A program made the position numbers and the translations under genes. Shown here one piece after another: positions 30,519 through 57,533 of a DNA stretch of 64,000 nt. The notes under the pieces were generated by a model. The model had not been told where the DNA came from. It did no database searches and saw only the letters and a program-made list of their open reading frames with translations. The stretch is from an uncultured Candidatus Saccharibacteria bacterium (GTDB lineage Bacteria > Patescibacteriota > Minisyncoccia > UBA6257 > Colwellbacteraceae): contig CAZLHU010000001.1 in NCBI GenBank assembly GCA_964559765.1, positions 75,600 through 139,599 of the forward strand, in the 5' to 3' direction. Numbering within the stretch: position 1 is the first letter of the stretch; each line of letters begins with the position of its first letter.

Positions 30519-30965
30519 ATGAGCGAGTTAGCGGCAAATAGGCGGGCGTACCACGACTATTCGATATTGGAAAAGTTCGAAGCAGGCGTGGAATTGTTCG
30601 GCCACGAAGTTAAGGCCATCAAGTCCGGGCGGGTGAATATAGCCGGAGGGCATGTTGCCATACGAAAAGGAGAGGCTTGGCTTGTCGGCGCCGACATCCC
30701 CCCATACCAACCGAAGAACATCCTTATCGCCTATGAACCGCAGCGAGACCGCAAGCTTTTATTGAACAAAAAGGAGATAGACGAACTGGCTGGACGCATC
30801 AGGGAAAAAGGTTTGACTGTCGTTCCGCTCAAGCTCTATACTACGGCCGGCAAAAGAGCCACAATAAAACTTGAGATCGGGCTCGTTCGCTCGAAGAAGG
30901 AGTTCGACAAGCGCGAGTTGATTAAAAAGAGAGAAGTAGAACGCAATATTCGGCGTGAAATCTAA
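30519..30965 (+). CDS. smpB: SsrA-binding protein SmpB
   Basis: 148 aa with the conserved N-terminal N+RA.HDY motif (NRRAYHDY) and the basic C-terminal tail typical of SmpB. Confidence 0.9.
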   Translation: MSELAANRRAYHDYSILEKFEAGVELFGHEVKAIKSGRVNIAGGHVAIRKGEAWLVGADIPPYQPKNILIAYEPQRDRKLLLNKKEIDELAGRIREKGLTVVPLKLYTTAGKRATIKLEIGLVRSKKEFDKRELIKKREVERNIRREI

Positions 30966-30966
30966 T

Positions 30967-31287
30967 GGGGGCGTACCGGCCTCGACAAAGATTAGCCCGG
31001 ATGACTGCAGGTCGAGCCTGACCACCTCGTTAAACTGGTCAAAACGATAGCTGCTAATAATAGAGTAGCCACTCCGGCTTTAGCTTACGCTTAGTCGGAC
31101 ATCGGCTCTTCTGCGCTCCGCGGGAGAATGTCCGGTGTCATACACGGAGCTCGCCTAGAACTTTTCGTTTCCTCCAGAATCCTAGGCTAGACCCAGAGGG
31201 AACACTTCGTTTTGTCTTCGGACAAATAAACCTGTAGATGGTCTTTCGGAAACTCTTTGGACGGGAGTTCGAATCTCCCCGCCTCCA
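30967..31287 (+). ncRNA. ssrA: tmRNA (ssrA), standard one-piece
   Basis: Starts 2 nt after the smpB stop. 5' GGGGGCG pairs with 3' CGCCTCC, giving a G3:U wobble at the third acceptor position. A conserved GGCCTCGAC (UCGAC) element lies near the 5' end and a tRNA-like T-arm GGACGGGAGTTCGAATCTCCCGCCTCCA-ACA at the 3' end. The internal tag frame is GCT AAT AAT AGA GTA GCC ACT CCG GCT TTA GCT TAC GCT TAG, predicting A-NNRVATPALAYA-stop. CCA is not encoded. Ends are +/-3 nt. Confidence 0.8.
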
Positions 31288-31416
31288 CATACAGATACGC
31301 AGAGGGCCGCACTAATCGTGCGGCTTTGTGCTTCCACGATGCTTGACTATCGATGTAATTTATGTTAAAAACAAATCATTCAGTTCGTTGAAATATCTAC
31401 TTGAGCCCCTCGAGAC

Positions 31417-31843: not shown

Positions 31844-32320
31844 TTAAAGCGAACTGGGTTGCTCGATCGGACAGGACGGCGCCGGAACCGACACACTGCA
31901 ATGTGACTCAAACATGGATTCGACCCTGTCGCCTATCCCCTCATGATGGAAAAGCACGCCCAAAGTTATGAATGTGAGCAATATGCCGATGATGATCCAT
32001 ACGGCTCGATAACGATAGCCGTCCTTTGTCGATCTTACGTTTAGATAGGCAAGAGCCATGAATAAAAGCGCAAAGAATAGCCATAAGAAAGATACCCAGT
32101 TAACAAGCCCATGGGACACGCCCATGCCCGGCGGCGCATATGGATTGTTACTGTTCTCTATCAACACCTCCTCGATGCTTATCGATATAGCCCCTAATAT
32201 CAGCCATAAAAGCAGAGACAGCCAAACCGCCGCATTTTTAATAACGAAATAACGCCTTGAGATTGGCTTTATATTCTTATCGCGTATCTCCCCGATTATT
32301 TTCTTGCTTGTGTCTGACAT
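31844..32320 (-). CDS. Membrane protein co-transcribed with the ECF sigma factor (candidate anti-sigma factor)
   Basis: 158 aa with a short cytoplasmic N-terminus (MSDTSKKIIGEIRDKNIKPISRRY) followed by 4 TM helices. Its start codon overlaps the sigma gene stop (plus-strand cat/tta share one base). Confidence 0.5.
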   Translation of the reverse strand: MSDTSKKIIGEIRDKNIKPISRRYFVIKNAAVWLSLLLWLILGAISISIEEVLIENSNNPYAPPGMGVSHGLVNWVSFLWLFFALLFMALAYLNVRSTKDGYRYRAVWIIIGILLTFITLGVLFHHEGIGDRVESMFESHCSVSVPAPSCPIEQPSSL

Positions 32321-32949
32321 TAGCTTCTCTTTTCCGAATTAATCGATTCGACCTCTTTCATCAACATCTTCTTGGCCCGGCTGATTAGGGAAGATATCGT
32401 CCCTGTGGGCTTCTTTAAGATATCAGATATCTCCGTATAATCCTTCTCCTCCATATATCTCAGGATAAGTACGTCCTTATATTTATCGTCCAAACGGTCG
32501 ATGGCCGCAAGCAACCTGGAGTGGTCCATCTTCTGGCCCAGCTCTTTATCCAAATCCTGCTCTGACGGGAACATTTCAAGCTTGTCGTCTTCCATCGCCA
32601 TCGCCGGGTGGGATTTGGTGTGCCGGAAGTGGTTTACGGCTTGGTTGTGTGCAATCCGGTATATCCAAGAGGAAAATTTAAGGCTTGAATCGAACCCGTT
32701 GAGATTGCGGTAGGCGCTTATGAAAACTTCTTGGACTATGTCTTGCGCATCCTCTAAGCTGCAGCCTATAAACCTAATTATGTATTTCTGCAGCTTGCCT
32801 TCGTATCGTTCGACAAGTTGTTCATAATACTTGTCATCTTTTGCCGATAATTCGGCCAGCTTCTCATCCGAGAGATCATTCATGTCTATATAATAACTTA
32901 TATCTTCGTTAATAATAGCCCCGTAAAATCCCGCATTCATGAGGTACAT
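32320..32949 (-). CDS. ECF-subfamily RNA polymerase sigma-70 factor
   Basis: Sigma-70 region 2 (LEDAQDIVQEVFISAYRNLNGF...FSSWIYRIAHNQAVNHFR) and region 4 (DVLILRYMEEKDYTEISDILKKPTGTISSLISRAKKML). The probable start is the internal MNDLSDEKL. Confidence 0.8.
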   Translation of the reverse strand: MYLMNAGFYGAIINEDISYYIDMNDLSDEKLAELSAKDDKYYEQLVERYEGKLQKYIIRFIGCSLEDAQDIVQEVFISAYRNLNGFDSSLKFSSWIYRIAHNQAVNHFRHTKSHPAMAMEDDKLEMFPSEQDLDKELGQKMDHSRLLAAIDRLDDKYKDVLILRYMEEKDYTEISDILKKPTGTISSLISRAKKMLMKEVESINSEKRS

Positions 32950-33043: not shown

Positions 33044-33607
33044 TTGAGCAGCGGTCCATACCGCTCTATTTTTATCGAAATGAAAAAGCTAATGTTCTCG
33101 CTCGGCATAATAATCATATTCGCGTTTTACGTGCTTTTTAGCAGCCAAAACTCCACTACATACACACCCCCTCCCCAAAACATATCTTCAAATATTGGCG
33201 GGTCCGGTAACAAAACATCTACAACCTCTAGTTCCACCAATTCCGCCAGTAGTTCTATATCTTCCGGCGCCGCAAATCCGCCACCCATAGTCACACAGAC
33301 ACCACCAGCCACGGTGGCATCCGCATATAAGGACGGCACATATGATGGCAGCGTAGACAGCGCGTTCTACGGCAATGTTCAGGTGGCGGCAGTGATACAG
33401 GGGGGTAAGATTACCGATGTACAATTCCTGCAATACCCCAGCGACAACGAACACTCCCATGAAGTGAGCAATTTTGCCTTGCCGACACTTAAACAGGAGG
33501 TTATCCAATCACAAAGCGCAAACGTCGACGCTGTTTCCGGAGCAACAGCAACTAGCCAAGCCTTCCAACAATCGCTTGCTTCAGCCCTTGCGCAAGCAAA
33601 GAACTAG
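33044..33607 (+). CDS. Exported FMN-binding domain protein with ApbE flavinylation motif
   Basis: N-terminal TM/signal anchor (probable start MKKLMFSL), an S/T/P-rich linker, then an FMN_bind-like domain with the flavinylation target DAVSGATATS (Dxx[ST]GAT). Confidence 0.65.
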   Translation: MSSGPYRSIFIEMKKLMFSLGIIIIFAFYVLFSSQNSTTYTPPPQNISSNIGGSGNKTSTTSSSTNSASSSISSGAANPPPIVTQTPPATVASAYKDGTYDGSVDSAFYGNVQVAAVIQGGKITDVQFLQYPSDNEHSHEVSNFALPTLKQEVIQSQSANVDAVSGATATSQAFQQSLASALAQAKN

Positions 33608-33613
33608 CGACCC

Positions 33614-34360
33614 ATGAGACAAACCAGGATACTGATGGGTATGCCCATATCCGTAGAGATAGCCGATCCGCAAGTTACAAATGCGGTTTTTGACAGCGTA
33701 TTCGATTACTTCAAATACGTCGACGATAAATTCAGCACATATAAAGAGTCCAGTGAGATAACGGCGATAAACGAGGGCAGGCTGGACAGCAAAGATTGGA
33801 GCAATGACATGAAACTCATCTTCGATCTGAGCGAGAAGACAAAAAGAGAGACCGACGGATATTTTGACATAAATACCCCAGCGGGGAAATGCGATCCATC
33901 CGGCATCGTTAAGGGTTGGTCCATATTCAACGCGGCGAAGATCCTCGAAGGAAGGGGTATTGAGAATTTTTATATCGATGCCGGCGGAGACATACAGCCG
34001 CACGGTAAAAATTCCTCTGGAGGAAAATGGAGCATTGGAATAAAAAACCCGTTCAACGATAAGGAGATAGTTAAGGTCGCATACGTAAACAGCGAAGGCG
34101 TAGCAACGTCCGGAACTTATATCCGTGGGTTGCATATCTATAACCCAAAGAACCACGAACCCGCGGACGAGATCGTCAGCCTGACCGTGATCGGCCCCAA
34201 CGTATATGAAGCCGACCGGTTCGCCACTCCGGCTTTCGCTATGGGCAAGGAAGGAATTAATTTCATAGAGAAGCTGCCCGGGTTCGAGGGATACGCCATA
34301 GACAAGACTGGTACGGCGACCATGACGAGCGGCTTCAATAAATACACCGTCAATGCCTGA
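33614..34360 (+). CDS. apbE: FAD:protein FMN transferase (ApbE family)
   Basis: 248-aa ApbE fold (SEITAINEG...DGYFDI...SGIVKGWSIFNAAKIL...IDAGGDI...ATSGTYIRG). Confidence 0.8.
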   Translation: MRQTRILMGMPISVEIADPQVTNAVFDSVFDYFKYVDDKFSTYKESSEITAINEGRLDSKDWSNDMKLIFDLSEKTKRETDGYFDINTPAGKCDPSGIVKGWSIFNAAKILEGRGIENFYIDAGGDIQPHGKNSSGGKWSIGIKNPFNDKEIVKVAYVNSEGVATSGTYIRGLHIYNPKNHEPADEIVSLTVIGPNVYEADRFATPAFAMGKEGINFIEKLPGFEGYAIDKTGTATMTSGFNKYTVNA

Positions 34361-35873
34361 TTTCATAGACAGATTTTTAAATAAGATAACTATGTACCGC
34401 CTGGTACTCTATTATCTGATTGCGCTGCTGATAGTAGCGATAATATTCGGCCAATTCGGGATTCTTCCCTATAATCCCATTGCCATAATTTTCTCCGTAG
34501 TTGTTTTGTTCGTCGTTTGCCTGGTGACGAACGAATTGTGTGCAATCGTCTTTGAAGCCCAGCCGAACACCGAGTCCGTATACATAACCGCGCTTATTCT
34601 GGCTCTGATCATAACACCTGTCATGCCGACGAAAATCGTGGCGATACCATTCCTCATCTGGGCAGCTATATTGGCGATGGCCTCTAAATATATTCTGGCC
34701 ATAAAGAACAAGCATATTTTCAATCCGGCCGCCTTGGCTGTGGCTATAACTGCATTGACCCTGGGCAAATCCGCCAGCTGGTGGATAGGAGGCAACTTGC
34801 CAATGATGGCTTTCGTCATTCTGGGCGGGCTATTGATCGTAAAGAAGGTGCATAGGTTTTATATGGTCGGCGCCTTTTTCATAGCGACCGTAGTCACGGT
34901 GATGTTGACCTATTCGGGCAACGCGCTTAACAGCATCCCACAGCTATTACTGCACACCCCAATATTCTTCTTCGCCTTTATAATGCTCACGGAACCGTTG
35001 ACCGCTCCGCCGACAATGTGGCTGAGAGTTGCATACGGCGCATTCGTGGGAGTGTTGTTCGCTCCGGCAATACATCTCGGCACAATATACTCAACGCCGG
35101 AGTTGGCGCTGGTGGTCGGCAATATCTTCTCCTATCTAGTGAGTCCCAAAGACAAACTAACGCTGGAGCTTAAAGAAAGGAAGCAGATCGGCCCGGGGAT
35201 ATATGAGTTTGTCTTCAATCCCGGAAGGAAAATGGAATTCGAGCCCGGGCAATACATGGAGTGGACCCTGGCCCACAACCATCCCGACGGGCGCGGCAAT
35301 CGTCGCTACTTCACCCTGGCATCTTCCCCGACGGAGAACGACCTGCGTATAGGTGTGAAATTCTACGATCAACCAAGCAGCTTCAAGAAGGAGCTCTTAT
35401 CTATGGATTTAGGAGATAAAATAATAGCCGGACAGCGAGCGGGAGACTTTACCATGCCGAGAGACAAAAATAAGGGCCTCGTTTTCATCGCCGGCGGGAT
35501 AGGTATCACGCCTTTTAGAAGCATGATCAAGTATCTGACCGACAAAGGAGAACGACGCCCAGTCACTCTTTTTTACTCCAATAGGACCGCCTCCGAGATA
35601 GCCTACTCGGACGTGTTCCGGGAAGCTGAGATGAAAATCGGCCTAAAGACCGTCTACACTCTCACCGACAAGGAAAATATTCCTAAAGGATGGACTGGGT
35701 CGACCGGCCAGATCGGGCCAGAGACGATTCTAAATAACGTGCCGGACTATCAAAACAAGACCTTCTATATTTCCGGGTCATATTCTATGGTCGCGGATAT
35801 TAAAAAAGTATTGCATGGATTAGGCGTCGCCGATCGGCGGATCAGGACGGACTTCTTCCCCGGACTCGCCTAA
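34353..35873 (+). CDS. Membrane flavoprotein oxidoreductase: N-terminal ~250-aa polytopic membrane domain fused to a ferredoxin-NADP+-reductase-like FAD/NAD(P)-binding module
   Basis: The C-terminal half has an RRYFTLASSP FAD-binding (RxYS) motif and a GGIGITPF NAD(P)-binding motif. The N-terminal half has about 8 TM helices. The gene overlaps apbE by 8 nt. Confidence 0.7.
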   Translation: MPDFIDRFLNKITMYRLVLYYLIALLIVAIIFGQFGILPYNPIAIIFSVVVLFVVCLVTNELCAIVFEAQPNTESVYITALILALIITPVMPTKIVAIPFLIWAAILAMASKYILAIKNKHIFNPAALAVAITALTLGKSASWWIGGNLPMMAFVILGGLLIVKKVHRFYMVGAFFIATVVTVMLTYSGNALNSIPQLLLHTPIFFFAFIMLTEPLTAPPTMWLRVAYGAFVGVLFAPAIHLGTIYSTPELALVVGNIFSYLVSPKDKLTLELKERKQIGPGIYEFVFNPGRKMEFEPGQYMEWTLAHNHPDGRGNRRYFTLASSPTENDLRIGVKFYDQPSSFKKELLSMDLGDKIIAGQRAGDFTMPRDKNKGLVFIAGGIGITPFRSMIKYLTDKGERRPVTLFYSNRTASEIAYSDVFREAEMKIGLKTVYTLTDKENIPKGWTGSTGQIGPETILNNVPDYQNKTFYISGSYSMVADIKKVLHGLGVADRRIRTDFFPGLA

Positions 35874-36910
35874 GCGTTTACCTTCCTCACTATACAGAAT
35901 GGCGTCATCTCGTCGGACTGGCCGAGCGGATTATCGCGGAACAACTTTCCTATAAATGACTCCGATATCGAACGCGTGGATTTGCCCAATGAGAAAGCGC
36001 CGCGATAATTTGCGTCGAGTATCACCGTTTCGCATCCCAGAAGGTTTTTTATTCGGCGGGCGGCCGCGCTTGGATCGTTTGGAGCAAGCTTCGCGGAGTG
36101 CGCATATTCCAATATAAGGAAGGACATCGGACAATCGATTGATTTGGCGCGCTGGCCGCAGATCCGATAAAACATGCCGCGTATGCCAAGCGGCCTCGTA
36201 ATCGCTGACACGGCTGCGGCCAATATTATCCGCGGATATCCAGCCTCCTCGATGAATAGCTGCATAGCAAGGCTCGTGCCGTGCCCAAAGCCATGGAATT
36301 TACTGGAACCATAGTAATTGCTGACGTTGCGGGCAAGCAACCGCGCGAATGGCGTTGGTTTTATGTCGCTCATGTCTATTACCCTGCCCTGGGTAATAGT
36401 CAGCGCCTTTTCGCTTATAAAAAGAGTGTCGCCGGGCTTTATATATGGGCCGACGTAATCTTTAACCAGCGGCAATATGTCTTTGTCTTGCAATGTTATG
36501 AGACGGGTTCGAACCGGCAGACGTTGATATGTAACGCCATCAACGTCGATAGTAAGGCTTTTCCCTGGGTTCGCAACAAATTCTCCGGATGGACGGCGCG
36601 GCGAGGTTGTAGCAGCGGTGCCGGCGAAAGAAACCTTCTCGCCCCGAAAGGCTGCTAGCAATCCCTCGGCTGCCTTGCGAATCATTGCACGATCTTGGTG
36701 AATTTCCGCGCGAGAATCGAGAAGTTCGGTCGCTTCCATATAAAGTATATGGGCTTCGTCGATCGCCGCCGCGGAGAATTTCGCCTCCGTGACGAGATCG
36801 TTGTTCTCCGATACGACTCGCACTGCGACCGATCCGTCGTCATGCGGAAGATAGACGACGACCAGGCCGGTCTGGTCCTTCATCTGCGTATACGTTTGTG
36901 GTTTTTCCAT
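35870..36910 (-). CDS. F420-0:gamma-glutamyl ligase (CofE)-like family protein
   Basis: 346 aa. Its core resembles the CofE/F420-ligase fold (ISEKALTITQGRVI...GxGxG-rich segment). Assignment is from weak motif similarity only. Confidence 0.4.
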   Translation of the reverse strand: MEKPQTYTQMKDQTGLVVVYLPHDDGSVAVRVVSENNDLVTEAKFSAAAIDEAHILYMEATELLDSRAEIHQDRAMIRKAAEGLLAAFRGEKVSFAGTAATTSPRRPSGEFVANPGKSLTIDVDGVTYQRLPVRTRLITLQDKDILPLVKDYVGPYIKPGDTLFISEKALTITQGRVIDMSDIKPTPFARLLARNVSNYYGSSKFHGFGHGTSLAMQLFIEEAGYPRIILAAAVSAITRPLGIRGMFYRICGQRAKSIDCPMSFLILEYAHSAKLAPNDPSAAARRIKNLLGCETVILDANYRGAFSLGKSTRSISESFIGKLFRDNPLGQSDEMTPFCIVRKVNA

Positions 36911-54006: not shown

Positions 54007-55251
54007 CTACTCGTAACGTAGGGATTCTATCGGGCTCTTTCGCGCGGCTTGCCGTGCGGGATAAATCCCGAAGACTAGTCCTGTGATTGTTGATACCGCG
54101 ACGCCTAATAAGACCGCCGATAGCGGAAATTCAAATGTCCAGCCAGTTGAAAGCACGTGGGAAAGTATTAGATAGGCTAATCCCGCGAATATCGCCCCCA
54201 CTGTTATGCCGATCACTCCCCCTAGGAAAGTGATCACTACGGCCTCAACCATGAATTGCTGCATGATATCTTTATTGGTCGCCCCAACAGCCTTCCTTAA
54301 GCCTATCTCCTTGGTTCTTTCAGTCACAGATACAAGCATTATGTTCATTATCCCTATGCCGCCGACAATGAGGGATATCGAGGCTATCGCCGCCAGGAAA
54401 AGGGTCATTATCGAGGTCACATTGCCCAACAACGATAATAGGTCCTGCTCCGTCTCGATCGTAAAGTCGTCTTTGGTGGGATCTGTGATTTTATGATCTT
54501 GCTCCAACACCGACTCGATCCGGCTCTGAACGAAGGTTGGATTGTAGGCTGAGTTAGCCTGGACTATGACCTCGCTCAGATAGTTAATCCCCAACAGCTG
54601 TTCCTGAGCCACGGTTATAGGTATTACCACCACGTCATCCTCCTCGGCGCCGAACGATCCAGTGCCCTGATTGCTTAGCACGCCGACGACACGGAATTCT
54701 ACGTTACCCAGAGGCATGTATTGGTTTATAGGGTCCACGTTTCCGAAAATAGTCGTCGCTATACCCGAGCCAATCACTGCGACGTGGTTAAGGGCATCGA
54801 CGTCGTTTTGGTTAAATTGCCGACCCTCCTTGGTTGGAAAATTAACCACGCTGAAAAAGTTCGCGGTCACGCCGACATATGCGGCATTAAGACTATTGTC
54901 GCCGTACACCGCCGGTGCTTGTCCCTTCACCGCCGATACGATCTGAGAGACGGACGGTTCCCGGCCCAAAGCATCGACATCTGCCTGCACAAGCGTCTTA
55001 GTGACGATTCCTGCCACGGAGGATGGGGTCGAGTTCTTGCCGCTGATTGTCCCTCCTGGCAGGATAATTACAAGATTGGAACCAACGCCCTGGACCTGGC
55101 TTATAATCAAATCCTGCGCCGATTGACCGATTGACATGAGAATGATTACTGAAGCAATACCTATAACTATCCCCAGCATTGTTAACGCAGACCGCATTTT
55201 TCCGTGATGAATGCTATCGAAAGCTGAATTAAAGGAATCTTTTATACGCAT
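54007..55251 (-). CDS. ABC transporter permease, MacB/FtsX family
   Basis: 414 aa with an N-terminal TM helix, a large periplasmic MacB_PCD-like domain and a C-terminal 3-TM FtsX domain. Confidence 0.85.
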   Translation of the reverse strand: MRIKDSFNSAFDSIHHGKMRSALTMLGIVIGIASVIILMSIGQSAQDLIISQVQGVGSNLVIILPGGTISGKNSTPSSVAGIVTKTLVQADVDALGREPSVSQIVSAVKGQAPAVYGDNSLNAAYVGVTANFFSVVNFPTKEGRQFNQNDVDALNHVAVIGSGIATTIFGNVDPINQYMPLGNVEFRVVGVLSNQGTGSFGAEEDDVVVIPITVAQEQLLGINYLSEVIVQANSAYNPTFVQSRIESVLEQDHKITDPTKDDFTIETEQDLLSLLGNVTSIMTLFLAAIASISLIVGGIGIMNIMLVSVTERTKEIGLRKAVGATNKDIMQQFMVEAVVITFLGGVIGITVGAIFAGLAYLILSHVLSTGWTFEFPLSAVLLGVAVSTITGLVFGIYPARQAARKSPIESLRYE

Positions 55252-55254
55252 GGC

Positions 55255-55968
55255 TTATTTGAAGAATTGTTCCTTAGACCGACGGCGAGTCTTAATGGGT
55301 TTGTCGCTCTCTATTAATCCGTCTTTAAGGGTTATTATCCTGTCGGCGAACTCTGCGGTGTACGTCTCATGAGTAACGAGTATTATTGTGTGTCCCTGAG
55401 AGTTAAGGTCGTCCAATATCTGCATGATCTGCGCGCCCGAAACGGAATCTAGATTCCCCGTCGGCTCGTCCGCAAAAATCACATTGGGTTTATTGACTAA
55501 GGCCCGCGCTATGGCGACCCTTTGTTTCTGCCCTCCAGAAAGCCTACCGGCTTCGACATATAACTTCTCCTCAAGCCCCACGGATTTTACAGCGTCTTCA
55601 ACCAGCTTCTTTCTTCTGGCTGGATCTATTTCTGCCGCATAGATTAACGGCATCTCGACATTCTCGTAGACCAATAGGCGGGACATTAAATTGAATGATT
55701 GGAACACGAAGCCCATGTCTTTATTTCTGACTCGAGCCAGCTCTTTGTCGGACATGTCGTCGATGCTTTTGCCTAGAAATGTATACACCCCTCCCGTCGG
55801 CCGGTCTAAGAAACTTAGGATTTGCAATAAAGTCGACTTACCCGAACCAGAGGGCCCGACAATAGATACAAAATCCCCCTTCTCAATATCAAATGAAACG
55901 CCTCTGAGCGCGGGGGTCACTGTCTCTTCGTCCAGATAATCTTTCTTTAGGCCCTTTACGGAGATCAT
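55255..55968 (-). CDS. ABC transporter ATP-binding protein (MacB/LolD-like)
   Basis: Walker [10 protein letters not shown], signature [15 protein letters not shown] and Walker [13 protein letters not shown]. Confidence 0.9.
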
Positions 55969-57533
55969 TGTTTGAGGCCGATGTTAAGAACTTGTTCGCC
56001 TTCGGTTACGCCCGAGGTTATCTCTATGTTGCCGTTCTGATCTTGTATACCAAGGGTCACTGGCACCTGTGCTACGCTGTTGTTTTTGAGCACTTCTACG
56101 AAACTGCCTGTGCTATTTTGGATGACCGCATATTGAGGGAGTATCAGCACGTTATTGTCAGTCTGGGTAATAATATTCAGATTCACAGTGAGGCCACTTT
56201 TTATGCGAGGGTCTGATTTATCAAAAGACACCTTGACCAAGTAATTTACAACTCCTCCGACGATGGTTTGCGCCGGGTCAATATAGAAGACTTTTCCGGT
56301 GAATTGTTCGCCAGAGAAAGCATCGAGGGTCATATCGACTGAATCTCCGACGTTGACCTTGCCGATATCAACCTCCGGGACATCTGAATCCACCTCGAGA
56401 TTATTATCTGAGATAATGGAGAAGAGCACACTTCCTGGTGAAGCTATCTCACCTACTTTTGCATTCTGCACCGTTATTACTCCAGAGATGGGGGCGACCA
56501 ATGAGGCTTCGGAGATGCTGACCTGTATATTTTGCACACTAGCCTCAGCCTGTTCGACTTGGGCCTCTTGGGCTTGAATGGCCTGCTGCGTCGAACCAGC
56601 CAATTTTAAGTTTAGTGACGCTACCTGCTGCTGTAAGACGGTTTTATTGGAGGCTATTTCTTGGGTTAGAGCATTAACGCTGGTTATTGCTGTATTTACC
56701 TCAGTTGTGGCGGCTGCGGCATCGGCCTGGTATGCGGCGGTATTCGACGATAGACCACGAGAGTCGTTTGCGGCGGTCATCACCTCTATTAAGAAAGATT
56801 GGATCACGCTCAAATGAGAGCTGGTGTCGGATAAAGCTGCTTCCAACGTGCTTGTAGAGGAATTACCGCTCATAGACTGAAGCTCGGTTTGCCATTTATT
56901 CAACTCAACGTTGGATTGGATTAGGCCGGAGTCTACGGTGTTTGAAATATTCTGATCGCTAACCTGGAAAGTCAGCGTAGGGTTGGAACCCTGGTTTAAG
57001 TTAGTTGAGCTAAATAAAGGAGCAAGTTGATTGTGTACCGCATCATTCGCTTCAGAATAAGCTTGGGTAATAATGTTCAGCACACTTGCATAATCATTTG
57101 TAAGATTCTGTTGAGCTGTCGTAACCGCAGCCTGCGATACCTGAACATCCTGTTCCGTTGCCCCAGCCTGTAGCGAGGCTAGGTTGGCTTTTTGTGTGTC
57201 TACATTGGCTTGAGCTTGGGCTAGTTGAGCTTGGAGACCACTGGTATTGAGCGTGACGACGACCGCTCCAGCATTCACATTTGCTCCTTGAGGATAATTA
57301 ACTGCGTTAATTGTTCCCCCATTCTGAAAAGCCATATCAACACTTTTTATAGGGGTGGTATTCCCGGTTACGGTCACTTCTTGGGTGATAGATCCTTTAT
57401 TTACGGTTATAAATTGGTATGTGCTATTAGCGCTTCTAGAATTTATAAAATAGACTACGCCCACCAGGACTATTAAGATGACAATGCTGTATATGATTGG
57501 TCTTTTTTTGAACAGGGTCACTGCTTTTTTCAT
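55965..57533 (-). CDS. Periplasmic adaptor / membrane-fusion protein (HlyD/MacA-like) with long coiled-coil hairpin
   Basis: 522 aa with an N-terminal TM anchor, extended Q/A/N-rich coiled coils and C-terminal beta-barrel/MP domains. It overlaps the ABC ATPase gene by 4 nt. Confidence 0.75.
   Translation of the reverse strand: MKKAVTLFKKRPIIYSIVILIVLVGVVYFINSRSANSTYQFITVNKGSITQEVTVTGNTTPIKSVDMAFQNGGTINAVNYPQGANVNAGAVVVTLNTSGLQAQLAQAQANVDTQKANLASLQAGATEQDVQVSQAAVTTAQQNLTNDYASVLNIITQAYSEANDAVHNQLAPLFSSTNLNQGSNPTLTFQVSDQNISNTVDSGLIQSNVELNKWQTELQSMSGNSSTSTLEAALSDTSSHLSVIQSFLIEVMTAANDSRGLSSNTAAYQADAAAATTEVNTAITSVNALTQEIASNKTVLQQQVASLNLKLAGSTQQAIQAQEAQVEQAEASVQNIQVSISEASLVAPISGVITVQNAKVGEIASPGSVLFSIISDNNLEVDSDVPEVDIGKVNVGDSVDMTLDAFSGEQFTGKVFYIDPAQTIVGGVVNYLVKVSFDKSDPRIKSGLTVNLNIITQTDNNVLILPQYAVIQNSTGSFVEVLKNNSVAQVPVTLGIQDQNGNIEITSGVTEGEQVLNIGLKQ

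Follow-up and report, generated by a model that had tools for sequence, protein, structure and literature searches.

How might a bacterium of the Candidate Phyla Radiation (CPR) deliver cytoplasmic electrons to a flavoprotein on its surface, and on which side of the membrane would that flavoprotein receive its flavin? Both questions are raised by three linked genes in a stretch of 64,000 nucleotides (nt) from an uncultured "Candidatus Saccharibacteria" bacterium (contig CAZLHU010000001.1, positions 75,600 to 139,599; here called the window). They encode an FMN_bind-domain protein, a flavin transferase of the ApbE family, and a membrane protein fused to a ferredoxin-NADP+ reductase (FNR)-type domain. 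An earlier note on this DNA had placed the three open reading frames (ORFs) on the forward strand, at coordinates that we confirm (Table 1), and had read them as a route for NAD(P)H electrons to a covalently flavinylated surface protein. This is the hypothesis already put forward in PMC8238504 and PMC10979944, and it is not new. Judged by its domains, the trio is a further member of the computationally predicted, published NQR/RNF-like kind, and its architecture is not new either. What we add is that the ApbE of the cluster is leaderless throughout the NQR/RNF-like family, and that the hosts extend to Alpha- and Gammaproteobacteria and Spirochaetota. We consider it likely that the trio makes up a transmembrane electron conduit of the NQR/RNF-like type, with two subunits, plus its maturation enzyme; electrons would flow outward, and flavin mononucleotide (FMN) may be attached before export.

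The trio matches a published cluster type

Meheust et al. (eLife, 2021; PMC8238504) used the term NQR/RNF-like system for flavinylation gene clusters encoding a PF03116-PF00175 fusion protein. Clusters were recognized by ApbE and/or FMN_bind within five genes, at least one of them with a predicted export signal. The locus has all of these properties: PF03116 at the N terminus and PF00175 at the C terminus are joined in a single protein, FMN_bind and ApbE lie directly upstream in the same operon, and the FMN_bind protein carries an N-in signal anchor. Furthermore, according to Huang et al. (2024; PMC10979944), NQR/RNF-like proteins do not retain the flavinylation site of NqrB/RnfD, and the covalent-FMN threonine is not conserved here.

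The earlier note had called such a module unexpected for a minimal organism. This surprise is misplaced, since CPR and Actinobacteria are the main hosts named in the 2021 paper. In line with this, among our best 120 protein matches, which were mostly metagenome proteins, the few source names given were nearly all of Patescibacteria/CPR lineages.

The fusion protein joins an NqrB/RnfD-like membrane domain to an FNR-type reductase

The 506-amino-acid (aa) protein matched PF03116 (NQR2_RnfD_RnfE) at residues 150 to 263 with 32.7 bits (gathering cut-off, 27.7; E=6.6e-8), and a profile of 38 fusion homologues matched Escherichia coli RsxD with 93.5% probability. Whether the membrane domain resembles NqrB/RnfD, a point that the earlier note had left for testing, is thereby answered in the affirmative. 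The AlphaFold2 model of the whole protein (predicted local distance difference test [pLDDT] score, 85.4; predicted template modeling [pTM] score, 0.75) had about 10 membrane helices instead of the roughly eight proposed before, and the domain has the ten-helix NqrB/RnfD fold related to urea/ammonium transporters.

The FNR-type module that had been proposed for the C-terminal half was borne out. PF00175 (NAD_binding_1) matched residues 378 to 484 (55.4 bits; E=1e-14), and NCBIfam showed a resemblance to Hmp, Fre, and NqrF. The domain belongs to the FNR superfamily (NqrF/Hmp/Fre type), with a beta-barrel for flavin adenine dinucleotide (FAD), an NAD(P) Rossmann domain, and the signatures R-x-[YF]-[ST] and GGxGxxP. 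Indeed, R318-Y-F-T321 and G381-G-I-G-I-T-P-F388 were invariant or almost so in the 38 homologues.

In the loops of the membrane domain, 12 Lys/Arg residues lie on the predicted cytoplasmic side versus 2 outside. Therefore, both termini and the FNR domain are assigned to the inside and the loop of residues 138 to 148 to the outside. In a MAFFT alignment with E. coli RsxD, this short loop stands in place of a deleted loop of about 75 residues, which in RnfD/NqrB bears the covalent-FMN threonine (GISQAT187 in RsxD). Because that loop is deleted, the membrane domain is NqrB/RnfD-like, yet it is no functional equivalent of NqrB/RnfD. We also considered KSAS (residues 139 to 142) as a vestigial flavinylation site and rejected it, since the whole loop is gone in the alignment.

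The FMN_bind partner is an anchored protein predicted to face outward

The first ORF, of 187 aa, matched PF04205 (E=1e-10; 42.5 bits; residues 109 to 182). The NCBIfam models for NqrC, RnfG, and PplA matched weakly and far below their equivalog cut-offs, and thus the protein is not an orthologue of any of the three. It has the features of NqrC/RnfG-type FMN_bind proteins, namely, the domain, the acceptor motif, and a single N-terminal membrane helix.

The true start is most likely ATG 33080 (MKKLMF...), which gives 175 aa, because homologues begin with MKK and a hydrophobic stretch. The signal anchor that follows, MKKLMFSLGIIIIFAFYVLFS, was called from hydropathy and charge. Positive charges precede it, none occur in the next 15 residues, and there is no -3/-1 signal-peptidase site; therefore, the topology should be N-in, C-out. 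This supports the earlier view of an anchored, outward-facing protein, with the acceptor threonine on the outer side by charge and hydropathy. Partners from different phyla share the anchor pattern MKKxxLSxFV..F..Y (L in 83%, S in 89%, and Y in 83% of 53 sequences). Because the anchor sequence itself is conserved, it suggests a retained helix with a specific contact to the membrane subunit rather than a generic signal.

Between anchor and domain lies a low-complexity tether of 64 residues, 16 of them Ser, 10 Thr, and 8 Pro. Tethers rich in these residues are typical of extracellular linkers. Linker length is highly variable among the homologues, whose reading frames span 137 to 594 aa, the longest being over-extended frames from high-GC genomes. 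The ApbE target motif D162-A-V-S-G-A-T168, which had been read correctly before, ends 19 residues before the C terminus, and T168 is the predicted phosphoester-FMN site. The pattern D-x-[IV]-[ST]-G-A-[ST] was universal among 52 partner proteins. Seven loci of the close subfamily (L001, L004, L015, L019, L021, L023, and L063) have SGAS in place of SGAT, which implies a phosphoester link to serine.

An export signal was present in every partner examined, and its type differed by group: an MKK-plus-hydrophobic anchor in CPR, Chloroflexota, and Proteobacteria, a cleavable AxA signal peptide in spirochaetes, and a lipobox in actinobacteria. The Joint Genome Institute (JGI) annotation of the same DNA (L082, 923-1216, corresponding to about 33314-33607 of the window) calls the FMN_bind gene at 97 aa, without anchor and linker, and places a spurious 53-aa ORF over it on the opposite strand. 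Such short calls would mask the export signal in SignalP-based surveys, and the system could be undercounted in CPR.

The ApbE enzyme is complete but leaderless

The second protein matched PF02424 (E=3e-39), so that both domain searches on which the earlier reading depended, FMN_bind and ApbE, were positive. Its AlphaFold2 model (pLDDT, 93.4; pTM, 0.90) superposed on Listeria FmnB, Thermotoga TM1553, Vibrio cholerae ApbE, and Treponema pallidum Ftp with query-based TM-scores (TMq) of 0.85 to 0.88; FmnB was the top Foldseek match (TMq 0.87). TSGTY, the His of LHIYNP (H174), and EADrfaT (D201/T205) were invariant in 34 ApbE homologues, and an internal segment of about 45 residues present in canonical enzymes is lacking. 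As modeled, the protein has the ApbE fold with its FAD pocket and Mg2+/His catalytic motifs.

The first strand of the model spans residues 2 to 7, so residue 2 is already within it, and an in-frame stop lies 2 codons 5' of the ATG. Neither a signal peptide nor a lipobox, either of which would mark a canonical extracytoplasmic ApbE, was found here or in any related locus. The label "extracytoplasmic flavinylation" given to the module before is therefore not upheld.

The trio is conserved across phyla

Species-representative genomes contained at least 460 relatives, of which 80 loci were kept. Their hosts include many CPR classes, Chloroflexota (Dictyobacter and Ktedonospora), Alphaproteobacteria (Mesorhizobium, Kaistia, and Phyllobacterium), Gammaproteobacteria-labelled metagenome-assembled genomes (MAGs), Spirochaetota, and Microbacteriaceae. 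The gene order FMN_bind, ApbE, fusion gene was kept in 50 of the 80 loci, which form the close subfamily, with median gaps of 4 nt and -4 nt; these 50 come from CPR, Chloroflexota, Alpha- and Gammaproteobacteria, and Spirochaetota. At the present locus, the FMN_bind TAG is followed by 6 nt and the ApbE ATG, and the ApbE and fusion genes overlap by 8 nt.

A degenerate Rnf/Nqr remnant without autonomous function might be suspected, since only NqrB, NqrC, and NqrF homologues are present and the flavin loop of NqrB has been lost. Conservation effectively refutes this: over 100 residues are invariant among the 38 fusion homologues, whose mean column identity is 59%, the same trio occurs across at least five phyla, and the membrane domain alone matches 387 clusters (50% identity) at E<=1e-30. 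In addition, the reading frames are intact and the structure models confident.

A divergent subfamily (L042, L050, L053, L059-L061, L066, L070-L072, L075-L077, L079, and L080) has the same gene layout and a longer ApbE of about 285 aa. Its partner protein aligns to the FMN_bind domain and fails the Pfam model. There, [SAG]-G-S-S-L-T replaces S-G-A-T-x-T, and the predicted acceptor is a Ser that follows Ser, not Ala. Seven loci from "uncultured Gammaproteobacteria" MAGs (L031, L042, L049, L050, L053, L065, and L074) have CPR-like proteins and neighbours, which may reflect wrong taxonomic labels or gene transfer.

A leaderless ApbE faces an exported substrate

When the target is exported, a canonical ApbE is an exported lipoprotein too, and ApbEs without a leader are known only with cytoplasmic targets (PMC12052999). 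The mismatch between the leaderless ApbE and its exported partner is mentioned neither by Meheust et al. nor by Huang et al., and the pipeline of the former required just one export signal per cluster (PMC8238504). The mismatch is not peculiar to our locus. In 29 of the 50 conserved-order loci, the ApbE domain begins at most 14 codons (often 1 to 5) after an in-frame stop, and in the other 21, upstream read-through yields no hydrophobic segment (highest 15-residue Kyte-Doolittle mean, 1.17). In about 15 divergent loci, including Microbacteriaceae, ApbE also begins at the domain; in one of them (L079), Pfam profile position 2 aligns at residue 7.

Three ways around the mismatch were considered and rejected. 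An alternative upstream ApbE start is precluded by the stop 1 to 14 codons upstream in the 29 loci and the lack of a hydrophobic stretch in the other 21. An FMN_bind-ApbE fusion or stop read-through seemed conceivable here, where the two genes are in frame (TAG plus 2 codons); none of the 50 loci is fused, and 10 are in frame, which is below chance. Export of a prefolded flavoprotein by the twin-arginine translocation (Tat) pathway was dismissed, as no twin-arginine motif was found save in one spirochaete sequence.

If flavinylation followed the canonical extracytoplasmic route, the partner would be exported unmodified and flavinylated outside, by a nonclassically exported ApbE or by a second, exported one, with FAD from an exporter. 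Precedent speaks for this route, since all characterised ApbE systems with exported targets act outside, and in Salmonella periplasmic location and export are essential for canonical ApbE function (PMC12052999). Neither a leader nor room for one exists in the approximately 65 cluster-encoded ApbEs, however, and here residue 2 is in the first strand. The missing fusion, in-frame bias, and Tat motif (one spirochaete sequence excepted) likewise argue against the route. A second ApbE was not found within the 64-kb window, although cultured hosts such as Mesorhizobium presumably have others. Nor is it easy to see why a cluster would retain a dedicated, translationally coupled ApbE without access to its sole evident substrate. 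We regard canonical flavinylation outside the cell as unlikely.

The substrate and the leaderless enzyme would also be reconciled if the whole flavin module were cytoplasmic, with FMN_bind inside and a membrane-bound NAD(P)H oxidoreductase working on an acceptor within the cell or the membrane. Cytoplasmic pairs of ApbE and FMN_bind are known, as for the Klebsiella fumarate reductase (PMC12052999), whereas NqrC and RnfG are extracytoplasmic (PMC12174285). The positive-inside rule gives an N-in/C-out anchor in almost all of the 53 partners, and the cleavable AxA signal peptides of spirochaetes and the lipoboxes of actinobacteria point outward as well. So does the Ser/Thr/Pro-rich tether, which is of the extracellular-linker type. 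Taken with these signals, a cytoplasmic module is most improbable.

Because ApbE is leaderless throughout the family, the simplest reading is that the C-terminal domain may receive its FMN on the cytoplasmic side and cross the membrane afterwards. The enzyme could then draw on cytoplasmic FAD, which would make a FAD exporter unnecessary. Generalized, this would mean that the family matures a surface flavoprotein by an undescribed route: a strictly cytoplasmic, translationally coupled ApbE would flavinylate the C-terminal acceptor before export, and the domain would then be translocated or docked into the NqrB-like subunit. We advance this route tentatively and with more doubt than conviction.

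Proposed electron path

In the conduit that we consider likely, the cytoplasmic NqrF/FNR-type domain of the 506-aa subunit would oxidise NAD(P)H via FAD and pass electrons to its own membrane half, the 10-helix NqrB/RnfD-like domain that has lost its covalent-FMN loop. The second, NqrC/RnfG-like subunit would be held by its conserved N-terminal helix, with the FMN_bind domain outside on the flexible Ser/Thr/Pro tether, and the co-encoded ApbE would link FMN covalently to its T168. Electrons would thus run from NAD(P)H to FAD, to a noncovalent flavin in the membrane domain, to the covalent FMN of the second subunit, and on to an external acceptor. NqrB has a riboflavin site near the cytoplasmic face (PMC12174285), and by homology the intramembrane flavin of the fusion protein would occupy the corresponding site. 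Huang et al. modeled the Ktedonobacter complex with AlphaFold-Multimer and suggested that the NqrC-like covalent flavin reaches the noncovalent flavin site of the NqrB-like subunit (PMC10979944). Here, the FMN of the second subunit would dock at the former place of the lost NqrB FMN. For a fermentative CPR cell, such a path could be an outlet for surplus reducing equivalents or a surface reductase.

In one outward-electron variant, the complex would reduce ferric iron or flavin in the service of iron assimilation, with extracellular Fe(III) or a chelate as the acceptor. The VIT1 iron transporter was present in 6 of 127 clusters of Meheust et al. (PMC8238504), and the C-terminal domain has FNR-type siderophore reductases among its structural neighbours; the latter likeness, however, is generic to the FNR fold. 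No iron-transport gene lies near the operon, and none recurs in five or more of the 80 loci, which makes this variant quite unlikely.

Several points count against the conduit and against maturation before export. The intramembrane flavin is placed by homology with NqrB, and a conserved acceptor gene was not found in the neighbourhoods of the 80 loci. Our literature search returned neither an experimental study of the NQR/RNF-like system nor a later paper on it, and no precedent for flavinylation of a Sec substrate before export. Cotranslational insertion of the hydrophobic anchor, of the signal recognition particle type, would leave a cytoplasmic enzyme little time. Finally, the requirement for export in Salmonella stands, and a second, exported ApbE could lie elsewhere in the genome, as the ApbE search covered 64 kb.

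Neighbourhood and regulation

Besides the trio, nothing was universal in the neighbourhoods of the 80 loci. The earlier note had called for a check of gene-neighbourhood conservation; the order of the trio is conserved in 50 loci, the flanking genes are not. The flavin operon is divergent from an operon for a SigW-like extracytoplasmic function (ECF) sigma factor, and the two have a 130-nt intergenic region in common. The neighbouring 158-aa membrane protein, whose start shares one base with the sigma gene, is presumably the anti-sigma factor, although no anti-sigma family matched it.

The divergent arrangement could be taken for an envelope-stress module under the ECF sigma factor, as had been suggested. 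Across the 80 loci, only 5 have an ECF sigma gene within 8 kb, and in 1 it is divergent and adjacent; evidence of an ECF promoter upstream of the operon was not found. A histidine kinase (21 loci) and a response regulator (17 loci) recur instead. ECF sigma control is therefore very unlikely, and the two-component system appears to be the better candidate regulator. A histidine kinase (HisKA plus HATPase_c) and an OmpR-type response regulator stand by the trio in Alphaproteobacteria, Spirochaetota, and some CPR (L074 10238-11302, L058 3370-4044, and about 20 others).

Within 6 kb of the trio, a MacB-type permease recurs in 22 and an HlyD-type adaptor in 12 of the 80 loci; this may mark a functional link or may simply reflect the commonness of such genes in CPR. 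In the window itself, a MacB-type exporter set lies 18 kb from the operon.

At the 3' end, the operon adjoins a 346-aa ORF that had been called CofE-like. Its match to the F420-0:gamma-glutamyl ligase family PF01996 is weak and short (27.7 bits; residues 142 to 196), and naming the protein CofE is not justified. The adjacency is ordinary lineage synteny: a 77%-identical relative keeps it, with the gene also next to panD and the ATP synthase operon, whereas the 60%-identical relatives read have other neighbours and none of the 80 loci has the gene. Like the ECF sigma factor, it is thus a local neighbour and no component of the system.

Within the nominal TTG-start ORF, 15 nt upstream of ATG 33080, stands a hairpin rich in G+C (AGCGGT-CCAT-ACCGCT, then CTATTTTTAT), which could be a leader attenuator or terminator. 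For the 130-nt leader as a whole, no Rfam match was obtained at E<=10 and the fold was not significant (z = -1.3); a riboswitch or attenuator in it was rejected on these grounds. Upstream of the operon region, smpB and a full-length transfer-messenger RNA (tmRNA) form a complete trans-translation pair.

Table 1. Features of the flavin operon and its surroundings (window coordinates)
Feature	Position	Strand	Remarks
FMN_bind gene	33044-33607	+	187 aa from TTG 33044; PF04205
Signal anchor	33080-33142	+	From hydropathy and charge
Ser/Thr/Pro-rich low-complexity tether	33143-33334	+	Residues 34-97
Acceptor motif DAVSGAT	33527-33547	+	Residues 162-168; read from sequence
ApbE gene	33614-34360	+	248 aa; PF02424
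Fusion gene (NqrB/RnfD-like + NqrF/FNR-type)	34353-35873	+	506 aa; PF03116 + PF00175
NqrB/RnfD-like membrane domain	34353-35153	+	Residues 1-267; about 10 helices, N-in/C-in
Predicted outward loop GKSASWWIGGN	34764-34796	+	Residues 138-148
Cytoplasmic NqrF/FNR-type FAD + NAD(P)H domain	35154-35873	+	Residues 268-506 and stop codon
RRYFTLASSP	35301-35330	+	Residues 317-326
GGIGITPF	35493-35516	+	Residues 381-388
ECF sigma factor, SigW-like	32320-32949	-	Divergent from operon
Membrane protein, presumably anti-sigma factor	31844-32320	-	158 aa; about 4 hydrophobic segments
F420_ligase-like ORF	35870-36910	-	346 aa; adjoins operon 3' end
smpB	30519-30965	+	
tmRNA, full length	30967-31290	+	RF00023, 131 bits; directly 3' of smpB
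Hairpin	33050-33065	+	5' of ATG 33080
MacB-type ABC exporter set	54007-57533	-	MacB_PCD/FtsX permease, ABC ATPase, HlyD adaptor

Implications

Should the published model hold, the operon would let a fermentative, tiny-genome CPR bacterium discharge NAD(P)H electrons outside with a self-contained system, which bears on the redox balance of CPR and on their interaction with hosts or minerals. The phylogenetic breadth, which includes the culturable Mesorhizobium, Kaistia, and Dictyobacter, provides an experimental entry point. To published work, the paradox of the leaderless ApbE adds something modest but new; it poses a concrete, testable question about where and how extracytoplasmic flavoproteins mature. 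If attachment before export proves true, bacteria with small genomes would have a general solution in it, and the rule that an exported target requires an exported ApbE would fall.

Comparison with known systems

The module had been likened to FmnB/PplA and to NqrC/RnfG flavinylation; its nearest analogues are NqrB, NqrC, and NqrF themselves, not the Listeria route. The likeness to flavin-based extracellular electron transfer (EET) in Listeria is that an ApbE-family transferase flavinylates a surface FMN_bind protein, which passes electrons to external acceptors. In Listeria, both FmnB and PplA are lipoproteins, and an energy-coupling factor (ECF) transporter exports FAD (PMC9973259), whereas here neither ApbE nor its partner is a lipoprotein. 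The Listeria path leads through Ndh2, demethylmenaquinone, and EetA/B, in contrast to the NqrB-like/FNR fusion of our locus, in which no quinone step is evident. No gene for Ndh2, EetA/EetB, or DmkA/DmkB was found in the operon or its flanks, and the locus is not of the Listeria EET type.

Na+-NQR of V. cholerae consists of NqrA to NqrF. Here, NqrA, NqrD, and NqrE are lacking, and NqrF, without its 2Fe-2S domain, is joined to NqrB, whose covalent-FMN loop is deleted. The proposed flow would be one-way and outward, unlike the semicircular path of Na+-NQR to quinone. Compared with RNF (RnfD/RnfG; E. coli RsxD/RsxG), the locus lacks RnfA, RnfB, RnfC, and RnfE as well as the loop bearing RsxD T187. 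The donor would be NAD(P)H via the FNR domain, whereas RNF uses ferredoxin/NAD via RnfB/RnfC.

Membrane proteins fused to FNR domains are also known among NOX/MsrQ-like proteins (e.g., SpNOX, 8qq7). These have a six-helix di-haem ferric-reductase fold, in contrast to the flavin-type NqrB/RnfD fold found here, in which no haem ligand pattern was identified. The ApbE that matures the Klebsiella pneumoniae fumarate reductase likewise lacks a signal peptide and acts in the cytoplasm (PMC12052999), but its substrate is a soluble cytoplasmic enzyme, whereas the sole evident substrate here bears an export signal.

Closest of all is the NQR/RNF-like system itself. With it the locus has in common the architecture, the CPR host group, the lost NqrB/RnfD flavinylation site, and the proposed flow from NAD(P)H to the outside. 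Apart from the missing VIT1 neighbour, there is no architectural difference between the two.

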